Source: Pocillopora verrucosa (taxonomy: Eukaryota). Taken from it: 64,000 nucleotides of DNA. The notes below the pieces were generated by a model. The model worked only from the letters and a program-made list of their open reading frames with translations. It did no database searches and was not told the DNA's origin. Positions 18,149 through 24,150 of the stretch are shown one piece after another; position 1 is the stretch's first letter; every line of letters begins with the position of its first letter. The position numbers and the translations under genes were made by a program. The stretch spans positions 5,113,331-5,177,330 of the forward strand of contig NC_089313.1 of NCBI RefSeq assembly GCF_036669915.1, written 5' to 3'.

Positions 18149-18511
18149 ATGCCTATGGCAAAGAGAGGAATTCGACAACCAACATCAAAGGCGAACTTAC
18201 GTTCGGAACATTGGATGACGAAGCGAAATTGGTTACATATCGCCAGAGATCACATGTACCCTAAGGAAAGGAATAAAAGCATTTTTTACAGTGAAGACCT
18301 CAGAGAAATTAGAAAACTCTGCAGGAAGATTCTGTTAAATCCACGTTCCGAGGAAATGGACAAAAATGATCCAAATAGACTAGAGTTAAAAGGATGGTTT
18401 AGGCACGCTATTGGTGAGCATGGTCTTACGGGATATCAGTGTTACATTGTAACAGTTATTTATGACCATAAAAACAATGAAGTGGTAACCGCATATCCGT
18501 CCTTGCGCTGA
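18149..18511 (+). CDS. Small conserved protein, copy 1 (120 aa); possible DUF4258-like domain
   Basis: ORF MPMAKRGIRQ…HIARDHMYPKERNKSIFYSEDLREIRKLCRKILLNPRSEEMDKNDPNRLELKGWFRHAIGEHGLTGYQCYIVTVIYDHKNNEVVTAYPSLR*. The paralogue at 30970-31353 differs at many positions but is dominated by conservative replacements (WxHIAxxHMYP, SxFYSxDLREIRxLCR, NDPNRL, GEHGLTG, VVTAxPSL retained) with no frameshift or stop; no dN/dS was computed. The H…ERg…NP…G…xVTVIYD..NNEVVTAYP pattern resembles my recollection of the DUF4258 profile, but this is unverified. Confidence 0.55.
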   Translation: MPMAKRGIRQPTSKANLRSEHWMTKRNWLHIARDHMYPKERNKSIFYSEDLREIRKLCRKILLNPRSEEMDKNDPNRLELKGWFRHAIGEHGLTGYQCYIVTVIYDHKNNEVVTAYPSLR

Positions 18512-18654
18512 ACTTTTACAAGACTAAGATACAGTGGAACCTCCATTTAACGAAGCGTTCTTTTCTTTCTTTTTTTTCCTGCGGTGTGCCGTTACACTAC
18601 CCAGGATTTTGTAATCGGAACCATTGCTGTAAATACCATTTGTGCTTTCATGTC

Positions 18655-21600
18655 TCAATGAAGAATTACATTTAATAAAACTGTCAATTTTATCAACTCC
18701 GTCTACTCTGTCGATTTTGTCCACTCTGTCTGCTCCGTTGATTTTGACCACTCCGTCTACTCTGTCGATTTTGTCCACTCCCTCAACTTTGTTGATTTCG
18801 TCCACTCCGTCTACTCTGTCGATTTTGTCCACTCCGTCTACTCTGTCGATTTCGTCCACTCCGTCTACTCTGTCGATTTCGTCCACTCCGTCTACTCTGT
18901 CGATTTCGTCCACTCCCTCTACTCTGTCGATTTCGTCCACTCCGTCTACTCTGTCGATTTCGTCCACTCCGTCTACTCTGTCGATTTCGTCCACTCCGTC
19001 TACTCTATCGATTTCGTCCACTCCGTCTACTCTGTCGATTTCGTCCACTCCGTCTACTCTGTCGATTTCGTCCACTCCGTCTACTCTGTCGATTTCGTCC
19101 ACTCCGTCTACTCTGTCGATTTCGTCCTCTCCGTTTACTCTATTGATTTTTTTAACTCTGTCTACTTTGTCGATTTTGTCCACTCCGTCTACTCTGTCGA
19201 TTTCGTCCACTCCGTCTACTCTGTCGATTTCGTCCACTCCGTTTACTCTGTCGATTTCGTCCACTCCGTTTACTCTGTCGATTTCGTCCACTCCGTTTAC
19301 TCTATTGATTTTTTTAACTCTGTCTACTTTGTCGATTTTGTCCACTCCGTCTACTCTGTCGATTTCGTCCACTCCGTCTACTTTGTCGATTTCGTCCACT
19401 CCGTCTACTCTGTCGATTTCGTTCACTCCGTTTACTCTGTCGATTTTGTCCACTCCGTTTACTCTGTCGATTTCGTCCACTCCGTTTACTCTGTCGATTT
19501 CGTCCACTCCGTCTACTCTGTCGATTTCGTCCACTCCGTTTACTCTGTCGATTTTGTCCACTCCGTTTACTCTGTCGATTTCGTCCACTCCGTTTACTCT
19601 GTCGATTTCGTCCACTCCGTTTACTCTGTCGATTTCGTCCACTCCGTTTACTCTATTGATTTTTTTAACTCTGTCTACTTTGTCGATTTTGTCCACTCCG
19701 TCTACTCTGTCGATTTCGTCCACTCCGTCTACTTTGTCGATTTCGTCCACTCCGTCTACTCTGTCGATTTCGTCCACTCCGTTTACTCTGTCGATTTTGT
19801 CCACTCCGTTTACTCTGTCGATTTCGTCCACTCCGTTTACTCTGTCGATTTCGTCCACTCCGTTTACTCTGTCGATTTCGTCCACTCCGTCTACTCTGTC
19901 GATTTCGTCCACTCCGTTTACTCTGTCGATTTTGTCCACTCCGTTTACTCTGTCGATTTCGTCCACTCCGTTTACTCTGTCGATTTCGTCCACTCCGTTT
20001 ACTCTATTGATTTTTTTAACTCTGTCTACTTTGTCGATTTTGTCCACTCCGTCTACTCTGTCGATTTCGTCCACTCCGTCTACTCTGTCGATTTCGTCCA
20101 CTCCGTTTACTCTGTCGATTTCGTCCACTCCGTTTACTCTGTCGATTTCGTCCACTCCGTTTACTCTGTCGATTTTGTCCACTCCGTCTACTCTGTCGAT
20201 TTCGTCCACTCCGTCTACTCTGTCGATTTCGTCCACTCCGTTTACTCTGTCGATTTTGTCCACTCCGTTTACTCTGTCGATTTCGTCCACTCCGTTTACT
20301 CTGTCGATTTCGTCCACTCCGTTTACCCTGTCGATTTCGTCCACTCCGTTTACTCTATCGATTTCGTCCACTCCGTCTACTCTGTCGATTTTGTCCACTC
20401 CGTCTACTCTGTCGATTTCGTCCACTCCGTTTACTCTGTCGATTTCGTCCACTCCGTTTACTCTGTCGATTTCGTCCACTCCGTTTACTTTATTGATTTT
20501 TTTAACTCTGTCTACTTTGTCGATTTTGTCCACTCCGTCTACTCTGTCGATTTCGTCCACTCCGTCTACTTTGTCCATTTCGTCCACTCCGTCTACTCTG
20601 TCGATTTCGTCCACTCCGTTTACTCTGTCGATTTTGTCCACTCCGTTTACTCTGTCGATTTCGTCCACTCCGTTTACTCTGTCGATTTCGTCCACTCCGT
20701 CTACTCTGTCGATTTCGTCCACTCCGTTTACTCTGTCGATTTTGTCCACTCCGTTTACTCTGTCGATTTCGTCCACTCCGTTTACTCTGTCGATTTCGTC
20801 CACTCTGTTTACTCTGTCGATTTCGTCCACTCCGTTTACTCTATTGATTTTTTTAACTCTGTCTACTTTGTCGATTTTGTCCACTCCGTCTACTCTGTCG
20901 ATTTCGTCCACTCCGTCTACTTTGTCGATTTCGTCCACTCCGTCTACTCTGTCGATTTCGTCCACTCCGTTTACTCTGTCGATTTCGTCCACTCCGTTTA
21001 CTCTGTCGATTTCGTCCACTCCGTTTACTCTATTGATTTTTTTAACTCTGTCTACTTTGTCGATTTTGTCCACTCCGTCTACTCTGTCGATTTCGTCCAC
21101 TCCGTCTACTTTGTCGATTTCGTCCACTCCGTCTACTCTGTCGATTTCGTCCACTCCGTCTACTCTGTCGATTTCGTCCACTCCGTCTACTCTGTCGATT
21201 TCGTCCACTCCGTTTACTCTGTCGATTTCGTCCACTCCGTTTACTCTATTGATTTTTTTAACTCTGTCTACTTTGTCGATTTTGTCCACTCCGTCTACTC
21301 TGTCGATTTCGTCCACTCCGTCTACTTTGTCGATTTCGTCCACTCCGTCTACTCTGTCGATTTCGTCCACTCCGTCTACTCTGTCGATTTCGTCCACTCC
21401 GTCTACTCTGTCGATTTCGTCCACTCCGTTTACTCTGTCGATTTCGTCCACTCCGTTTACTCTGTCGATTTCGTCCACTCCGTTTACTCTGTCGATTTCG
21501 TCCACTCCGTTTACTCTGTCGATTTCGTCCACTCCGTTTACTCTATTGATTTTTTTAACTCTGTCTACTTTGTCGATTTTGTCCACTCCGTCTACTCTGT

Positions 21601-23830: not shown

Positions 23831-23947
23831 GGGTGTGTTTTCAGGTTTGCCATTTTCGCTCCTTATCTTGTAGCCTTAAGAGAAGATCGATCACGATCGA
23901 CGTTAAACAAAATTCCTACAGAAACTATGTCTAATAATTAACATGGT

Positions 23948-24150
23948 CCGCTTCGTCGACTCTGGGAGTGTTTTCAGGTTTGCTATTTTCGCTCCTCATC
24001 TCGGAGCCTTAAGAGAAGATCGACCACGATCGACGTTTAAAAAAATTCCTACATTGCGGCAGGAACAATTCAAGAACGGATAATAAATGAACTTTGTCAA
24101 GCGACATCCACAGTTTTCGTATTTGCATATGAATGTCAGTTTCCAGTTGA
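23948..24150 (+). repeat. Downstream direct-repeat copy after array 1, preceded by a partial copy at 23826-23900
   Basis: gtgttttcaggtttgctattttcgctcctcatctcggagccttaagagaagatcgaccacgatcgacg…attcctacattgcggcaggaacaattcaagaacggataataaatgaactttgtcaagcgacatccacagttttcgtatttgcatatgaat. Confidence 0.7.

Follow-up and report, generated by a model that had tools for sequence, protein, structure and literature searches.

Organization of the locus

The DNA analyzed here (the window) is a stretch of 64,000 nucleotides from the scleractinian coral Pocillopora verrucosa (assembly GCF_036669915.1, contig NC_089313.1, positions 5,113,331 to 5,177,330 of the forward strand). It carries two related units, in each of which a small open reading frame (ORF1 or ORF2) is followed by a tandem array of 27-bp repeats, while a repeat of about 230 bp, designated R, lies about 1 kb upstream of the ORF and again, as R', directly after the array (Table 1). 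A sequence-only reading of the same DNA had placed such an array behind each ORF and a sequence of about 200 bp both upstream of the ORF and after the array. These two observations hold, and the positions it gave for the repeat are off by no more than a few tens of bases. The spacing of 40 to 145 bp that it reported between ORF and array had to be corrected, since the stop codon and the array are separated by 170 bp in unit 1 and by 73 bp in unit 2.

Both repeats are far from chance occurrences. R is found at five places in the window when an extra partial copy is counted; a 20-mer taken from it occurs 4 times against 0.11 expected, and its upstream and downstream copies are 75 to 80% identical. 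A 21-nt core of the array unit, allowed up to 3 mismatches, matched the window 199 times against 0 expected, every match falling inside the two arrays. The isolated array-like units ahead of ORF2 (Table 1) end a stretch of about 670 bp that has no counterpart in unit 1, where the homologous spot (about 17255 to 17275) bears only a partial resemblance to them.

Table 1. Features of the two units and of the surrounding HBS1-like gene (window coordinates)
Feature	Position	Strand	Remarks
Duplication unit S1	13903-26181		Distal degenerate copy; holds R, ORF1, array 1, R', and decayed copies of HBS1-like exons
R up1	16939-17175	+	80% identical to 23972-24200; 89% identical to the same-position copy in contig L018
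ORF1	18149-18511	+	120 aa, intronless; predicted BECR-fold RNase-toxin-like domain
Array 1 (27-bp minisatellite)	18681-23791		Tandem Repeats Finder (TRF): period 27, 189 copies, 87% matches, 0% indels, score 7048; consensus (189 units) CTGTCGATTTCGTCCACTCCGTCTACT
Partial tandem copy of the 5' part of R'	23813-23945	+	At the boundary of array 1; 89% identical to 23946-24053
R' down1	23972-24200	+	Downstream copy, unit 1; directly abuts array 1
Duplication unit S2	26569-33858		Functional-looking 3' HBS1-like exons plus intron with R, ORF2, array 2, and R'
HBS1-like exon	27688-27832	-	Last exon found; 48-letter peptide
HBS1-like exon	28093-28193	-	34-letter peptide
HBS1-like intron	28194-33583	-	5.4 kb, GT...AG; R, ORF2, array 2, and R' antisense within
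R up2	29707-29925	+	Upstream copy, unit 2
Isolated array-like units, about 1.3	30722-30764	+	CTCTACGTCGACTCTGTTGATTTTGTCAATTCCGTC; about 200 bp upstream of ORF2
ORF2, paralog of ORF1	30970-31353	+	From the conserved Met; 67% amino acid identity; frame open back to 30793
Array 2 (27-bp minisatellite)	31426-32754		TRF: period 27 (also 54 and 106), about 48 copies, 4% indels; consensus (about 48 units) CTGTTGATTTTGTCCACTCTGTACACT
R' down2	32753-32915	+	Downstream copy, unit 2; internal deletion of about 50 bp
HBS1-like exon	33584-33692	-	Immediately upstream, in gene order, of the cassette-bearing intron
HBS1-like exon	34452-34553	-	
HBS1-like exon	38809-38910	-	
Array of contig L018			At least 22 units, contig ends in the array; consensus CTGTCGATTTTGTTAACTCTGTCTTCT

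A tandem duplication of the 3' end of an HBS1-like gene

We compared the window with itself by blastn, the arrays being masked. At least 13 collinear blocks in the same orientation, 73 to 87% identical, linked positions 13903 to 26181 with 26569 to 33858, and the similarity between the two units ran for kilobases past both R copies and took in exons of the host gene. Because it continues beyond R and R', the two apparent cassettes are, on this comparison, the halves of one tandem segmental duplication of 7 to 12 kb. Adjacent, collinear, same-orientation copies that reach past the feature in question are what defines such a duplication, and this is what the locus presents. The units measure 12.3 kb (S1) and 7.3 kb (S2), and array 1 makes up most of the gap. 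As its second choice, the sequence-only reading had proposed that gene and array were carried along together when the DNA was duplicated; with the ORF, the array, and both R copies all lying within one duplicated segment of this size, that second choice is supported.

Exons of the host gene were located by tblastn with the C terminus of human HBS1L as the query. Matches on the minus strand were obtained at 38910 to 38809, 34553 to 34452, 33715 to 33572, 28193 to 28092, and 27828 to 27685, and the refined exons (Table 1) have canonical borders, with AG before and GT after the exon. The joined exon peptides matched HBS1L chains in the PDB with an E value of 1e-67, while eEF1A, the next family, reached 8e-24; by these matches, the minus-strand gene is an HBS1-like ribosome-rescue GTPase. 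Its exons bracket positions 28194 to 33583, and therefore R up2, ORF2, array 2, and R' down2 all lie antisense in a single intron. In unit 1, the copy of the last exon found (14652 to 14790) is frameshifted, that of the next exon is missing, and that of the third is fragmentary. The locus thus resembles a duplication of a gene 3' end with a nested intronic gene, in which there are likewise two adjacent copies of 7 to 12 kb comprising exons, intron, and nested gene, the distal exons being pseudo-exons. What sets the locus apart is the pair of direct repeats (R and R') inside each unit.

In two other coral assemblies (L024 and L025), the orthologous intron is only about 0.3 to 0.6 kb long, and tblastn detected no copy of the small ORF in the HBS1-like locus of either. 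Since these orthologous introns are short and devoid of the ORF, the comparison marks the extra intron content as a lineage-specific gain. An ankyrin-repeat ORF (window positions 36526 to 37191, plus strand) also lies antisense in the HBS1-like gene, in the intron that separates the exons at 34.5 and 38.8 kb; its nesting, unlike that of the small gene of the duplicated units, is kept in the other corals (L024, positions 4143 to 4907; L025, positions 5804 to 6418).

Related contigs from the Tara Pacific coral metagenomes repeat this picture. Contig L004 is 97.7% identical to window positions 13900 to 17689 and stops inside the array. Every recovered copy of the cassette, namely, the two in the window and those on six distinct Tara Pacific contigs, has the same flanks, and five contigs (L004, L018, L019, L020, and L021) share with the window the upstream block, which is the HBS1-like exon region, the downstream block, or both. 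Four of them (L004, L018, L020, and L021) end inside the 27-bp array, while on L019 the next unit begins immediately after the ORF, an array of 5.5 units, and R'. Contig L001 comprises at least three tandem units in which the ORF stands in the same exon context but without R, R', or the array, so R would not be required for the small gene to sit there. On the same contig, a MITE-like element (miniature inverted-repeat transposable element) of about 280 bp with terminal inverted repeats of about 40 bp follows the 3' flank of the ORF (9860 to 10140), and two copies of a short repeat (GAGACTGGGGAAACTCGTTCGTTATATCGAG...) lie at 9350 to 9650.

We then considered how the R copies are related to one another. 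Within a unit, the upstream and downstream copies are 80% identical, both in unit 1 and in unit 2. Across units, the downstream copies are closer (84% for down1 and down2, 86% for down1 and the downstream copy of L019, 91% for down2 and the downstream copy of L019), and so are the upstream copies up1 and that of L018 (89%). The copies thus cluster by position and not by unit, with the single exception of up2, whose best match is down2 at 80%, a value within the noise of the 76 to 79% found for the others. Retrotransposition, by comparison, leaves the repeat pair of each new element identical. Since the copies group by position, the R...R' arrangement appears to have existed beforehand and to have then been copied as DNA, not by transposition.

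Structure and evolution of the 27-bp minisatellite

Both arrays are head-to-tail repeats of 27 bp (189 and 48 copies) and hence eukaryotic minisatellites (variable-number tandem repeats) by definition, that class having units of 10 to 100 bp in arrays from hundreds of base pairs to several kilobases in length. They share the common traits of that class, i.e., arrays of 0.15 to 5.1 kb, higher-order blocks, degenerate edges, homogenized variants, and length differences between paralogs; there is no essential difference from it, although array 1 is unusually clean and CpG-rich. The 27-mer itself is made of three diverged 9-mers (CTCTGTCGA, TTTCGTCCA, and CTCCGTCTA). Where array 2 approaches R', its period falls to 18 and 9 bp, and the same array includes 25-bp variants of the unit.

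In array 1, the 27-bp register is kept over about 185 units without an indel. The units fall into 46 distinct types, and in the string of types, blocks of 13 and 16 units are repeated nearly verbatim, with peaks of similarity at lags of 13, 16, and 30 units; this block pattern reads as the signature of recent unequal exchange. Between paralogs, the length of the array ranges about 35-fold, from 5.5 units (L019) to 189, and each array has its own homogenized variant. Concerted evolution of the arrays by slippage and unequal exchange would give rise to the blocks, the paralog-specific variants, and the differences in length.

The two arrays also differ in their ratio of observed to expected CpG, which is 1.83 in array 1 and 0.53 in array 2, where TpG stands in place of each of the three CpGs of the unit. 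Loss through gene-body methylation of unit 2 was considered as the cause and rejected, the ratio outside the arrays being equal in the two units (0.91 and 0.89). More likely, the difference reflects which variant happened to be homogenized. On a larger scale, the non-array ratio is about 0.9 over the duplicated segment (13903 to 33858) and 0.35 and 0.52 in its flanks (1 to 13900 and 33859 to 64000, respectively), so that the duplicated region looks unmethylated in the germ line even though it is partly an intron of a housekeeping-type gene.

The junction between array and R' (...GTCGACTCTTGGA followed by GTGTTTTCAGG) is essentially the same in down2 and in the downstream copy of L019, and down1 has a close variant of it. 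At the array/R' boundary of unit 1 there are nested partial re-duplications of the start of R, and one degenerate motif resembling the unit, GATATTGYYGA, stands ahead of the upstream R copies. Taken together, these features suggest that the array arose by growth of a short sequence motif located at the 5' edge of R; they also keep alive a minority reading, weighed below, in which R and the repeats are a piece of a transposon.

The combination of gene and 27-bp array was not found around two distant members of the ORF family (L022 and L023). The L022 member lies amid unrelated minisatellites (78 bp in 63 copies, 29 bp, 9 bp, and 13 bp in 26 copies; positions 1 to 5001, 9070 to 9850, and 12598 to 13177). 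Minisatellites are thus common near genes of this family, while the 27-bp array is lineage specific.

The small gene

The product of the small ORF has no Pfam match, no Pfam family reaching the threshold, and its close relatives number only 12, each of them derived from a Tara coral metagenome. When 1.84 billion representative sequences were searched with a profile, the family grew to 89 clusters, including an adjacent pair of hypothetical genes of the coral Oculina patagonica. When AlphaFold was given an alignment of 70 sequences of remote relatives, the predicted local distance difference test score (pLDDT) was 88, against 43 with the 14 close paralogs only. A Foldseek search of the PDB with the product returned no significant match, although its top entries were the toxin families discussed below. 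Among the 70 family members, comparison with Pfam gave six weak, sub-threshold matches, to PBECR2, PBECR3, or EndoU_bacteria (best E value, 7e-4). His35, Ser44, and Thr114 are conserved in at least 90% of the 70 members.

The BECR fold is an alpha+beta fold common to barnase, EndoU, colicin E5/D, and RelE. The small ORF product models as a BECR-fold RNase-like domain (colicin D/CdiA/RelE-like) that belongs to no named family. It shares the predicted fold with the RNase toxins of this group (colicin D, CdiA-CT, MafB-CT, YxiD-CT, and BrnT/RelE) and differs from them in being a stand-alone coral protein of 120 aa with no delivery domain. No immunity gene adjoining the ORF turned up, although no search aimed at one was made. 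Among the paralogs, the ratio of nonsynonymous to synonymous substitution rates (dN/dS) is 0.66 to 1.6, all copies seen are intact, and the C-terminal NEVVT..PS block is invariant in the 14 close paralogs. The intact copies and the invariant block fit a fast-evolving functional family better than a set of pseudogenes, which is not to say that they prove function.

It has been documented in general that polymorphic-toxin domains of bacteria have passed laterally to eukaryotes, among them cnidarians (PMC3482391). A stronger proposal would be that the small gene is a domesticated BECR RNase toxin of bacterial type that entered the HBS1-like intron and was coamplified with the 3' end of the gene, the pairing of the two being functional; we regard this as very doubtful. 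If it were true, an RNase that cuts mRNA or tRNA would be linked in cis, by way of antisense or convergent transcription, to the factor that frees ribosomes held up on the cleaved RNA, and the CpG-rich minisatellite together with R' would form a boundary or terminator between two convergent transcription units.

Alternative explanations for the cassette and the array

The sequence-only reading had preferred to see the cassette as a mobile element, either a non-autonomous element resembling a long terminal repeat (LTR) retrotransposon, of the TRIM (terminal-repeat retrotransposon in miniature) or LARD (large retrotransposon derivative) type, or another composite, and had pointed to target-site duplications, a primer-binding site, and a polypurine tract as the marks to look for. 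None of these was seen. An LTR retrotransposon that had captured the gene and the satellite and made its two copies by retrotransposition would account for the same-orientation direct repeats that bracket an internal region in both units and for an intron that is about 5 kb longer than its coral orthologs; TRIMs and LARDs likewise have two such repeats of a few hundred base pairs around an interior without coding capacity. At compatible positions of the cassette flanks, however, where such an element would have a target-site duplication of 4 to 6 bp, no k-mer of 5 nt or more was shared, the sole match, GTGTTTT, being part of R or of a T-run. There was no TGG of a primer-binding site in the 80 nt after R in unit 1 and no purine run of 8 nt or more in the approximately 75 nt before R' in either unit, where the sequence is pyrimidine-rich array or array edge. 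The homology of R ends raggedly, with a TG near its start (GAGTGTTTTC) and no defined, conserved CA end that could be placed, and scans of the window and of R' revealed no tRNA or Rfam feature. What tells most against an LTR origin is that the R pair of a unit is not the closest pair. In addition, the similarity of the units passes both R copies by kilobases and includes host gene exons, all recovered copies sit in the same flanks and none in a new context, and the interior is a host-type gene that also exists, on L001, without the repeats. We consider such an origin highly improbable. A different proposal takes R plus the 27-bp tract as one unit of an uncharacterized non-autonomous transposon or retroposon, for example, a minus-strand body of the short or long interspersed element (SINE or LINE) type with a tail of short tandem repeats, or a MITE, which was inserted twice in the intron and had one of its tails expanded into the array. 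The array-to-R' junction essentially conserved in three paralogs, the one degenerate unit-like motif in front of the upstream R copies, and the presence or absence of R and array together are all in line with it, as is a weak terminal inverted similarity of 8 to 9 bp read from the sequence (AGTGTTTTCA...TGAAAACAAGT). That similarity is short, however, and absent in up2, and the unit has neither a target-site duplication nor a tRNA-like or Rfam-like head. Moreover, R was not found outside the units in the window plus about 140 kb of related coral contigs (about 200 kb in total), whereas a truly dispersed SINE-like repeat of about 200 bp, which served as the control, is present at least 12 times in the window and again in the related contigs. 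In a scan of JGI metagenome contigs, a collection from which this coral is evidently missing, the R 20-mer gave 13 matches, all of them due to chance and without wider similarity. On balance, we hold this proposal to be unlikely.

The array, for its part, might encode a protein or serve the small gene in cis. The candidates are an acidic minus-strand protein of 1,700 aa, (VDGVDEIDR)n, and two proteins read from the plus strand, (VDFVHSVYS)n and (LSISSTPST)n. Array 1 is indeed open in three of the six frames at once (1,135, 1,654, and 1,670 of 1,703 codons, the 1,654 in one plus frame and the 1,670 on the minus strand) with no frame-breaking indel, and its five commonest C/T variants fall in one codon phase and are synonymous in the plus-strand VDFVHSVYS frame. 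The three simultaneous open frames, however, follow from the composition of the unit, and array 2 is broken by its 25-bp units in all six frames, none being open beyond 177 of 442 codons. Both candidate frames meet a stop codon in at least one of the arrays of L018, L020, and L021. By a hand tally, the distinct variants of array 1 are spread over the three codon phases as 11, 13, and 12, that is, without 3-periodicity, and finding 5 of the 9 common variants in one phase has a P value of about 0.14, an estimate that rests on the same kind of tally; in the minus frame, the commonest variants alter first codon positions (E/K and D/N). Finally, a search of 5.8 billion proteins with the minus-frame translation brought up no real homolog, only low-complexity look-alikes (such as a cockroach hypothetical protein and bacterial ones). 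A coding array is thus extremely improbable, and on these sequence features the array is non-coding. As a cis element, it could be a satellite of the 3' untranslated region or terminator of the small gene, or a CpG-rich boundary that halts antisense transcription before it reaches the HBS1-like exon about 0.7 kb further on. The array starts 70 to 290 bp after the stop codon in four types of paralog, an AATAAA lies at 18674 to 18679, 2 bp ahead of array 1, and the high CpG ratio of that array would suit a boundary. Against this, L001-type paralogs have an intact ORF and no array, the length of the array varies about 35-fold between paralogs, one having only 5.5 units, the CpGs are lost in array 2, and the AATAAA is not conserved; as a conserved poly(A) site it was rejected, being absent from the other paralogs. 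We think a cis-acting role very unlikely.

Proposed history and significance

The explanation that we favor, and regard as highly probable, is a tandem duplication of the 3' end of the HBS1-like gene together with the gene nested in it, the array being a neutral, hypermutable by-product. The order of events below, the mechanism of slippage and unequal exchange, the lack of function of the array, and its origin at the edge of R are what we infer from the comparisons. An ancestral HBS1-like intron would have gained about 5 kb including the small gene, the gain itself being seen in the comparison with L024 and L025. In one sub-lineage, R may then have been duplicated so as to flank the gene, carrying a short motif of 9/18 bp at its edge, and this motif may have expanded into the 27-bp minisatellite between the 3' end of the gene and R'. 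Next, the 3' end of the HBS1-like gene with its intron would have been duplicated in tandem, with more units arising in related genomes. R and R' would both have been present before the segment was duplicated, and the order R, gene, array, R' would have been inherited by each unit. Thereafter, the arrays would have drifted independently by slippage and unequal exchange.

Several observations do not sit easily with this explanation. The approximately 5 kb of intron content absent from the L024 and L025 introns must have come by some insertion process. The lack of dispersal of R rests on about 200 kb, and the source genome may hold a low-copy dispersed family at other sites, either of R by itself or of R with the array. 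R, R', and the array are jointly present or jointly absent, there being only two kinds of cluster, which hints at one entity. Array 1, free of indels over 185 units and with its CpG ratio of 1.83, fits a recent expansion but could also reflect a hidden constraint.

Nothing at this locus is a new kind of system. The 27-bp array, R, and the coral BECR-like family appear to be undescribed, full-text literature searches having given nothing on any of them. The analysis removes a candidate for a new LTR-like cassette and illustrates that a pair of repeats inside a local segmental duplication can give it the look of a terminal-repeat element; two questions quickly tell these cases apart, namely, whether the similarity extends past the presumed terminal repeats and whether the copies of the repeat group by position or by unit. 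It also brings to light a coral family of small proteins resembling BECR-fold RNase toxins, with at least 89 public sequence clusters and no Pfam family, which here is tandemly amplified with a dN/dS near 1 and is nested antisense in an HBS1-like intron about 10 times longer than in other corals. In practical terms, the 5.1 kb of perfectly phased repeats in array 1 will break short-read assemblies.

Other repeats and reading frames in the window

The dispersed SINE/MITE-like family of about 200 bp that served as the control is present in both orientations, its copies being 70 to 85% identical. They are located at 49525 to 49731, 40839 to 41037, 26646 to 26851, 13975 to 14183, 995 to 1192, 45182 to 45387, 42753 to 42963, and 33075 to 33252, among other sites. 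A second family of about 200 bp occupies 50099 to 50298, 62893 to 63091, 5922 to 6119, 12360 to 12551, and 46551 to 46747. Palindromic or hairpin-like stretches, 67 to 88% identical to their own reverse complement, lie at 49205 to 49391, 61428 to 61570, 25284 to 25474, and 54221 to 54434.

The minus strand of positions 47187 to 49031 has an open frame of 615 codons, rich in Ser, Leu, and Pro, with internal tandem repeats of about 160 bp (48034 to 48367). This frame is probably a low-complexity exon of a further gene; the strand opposite it is also open, over 209 codons.

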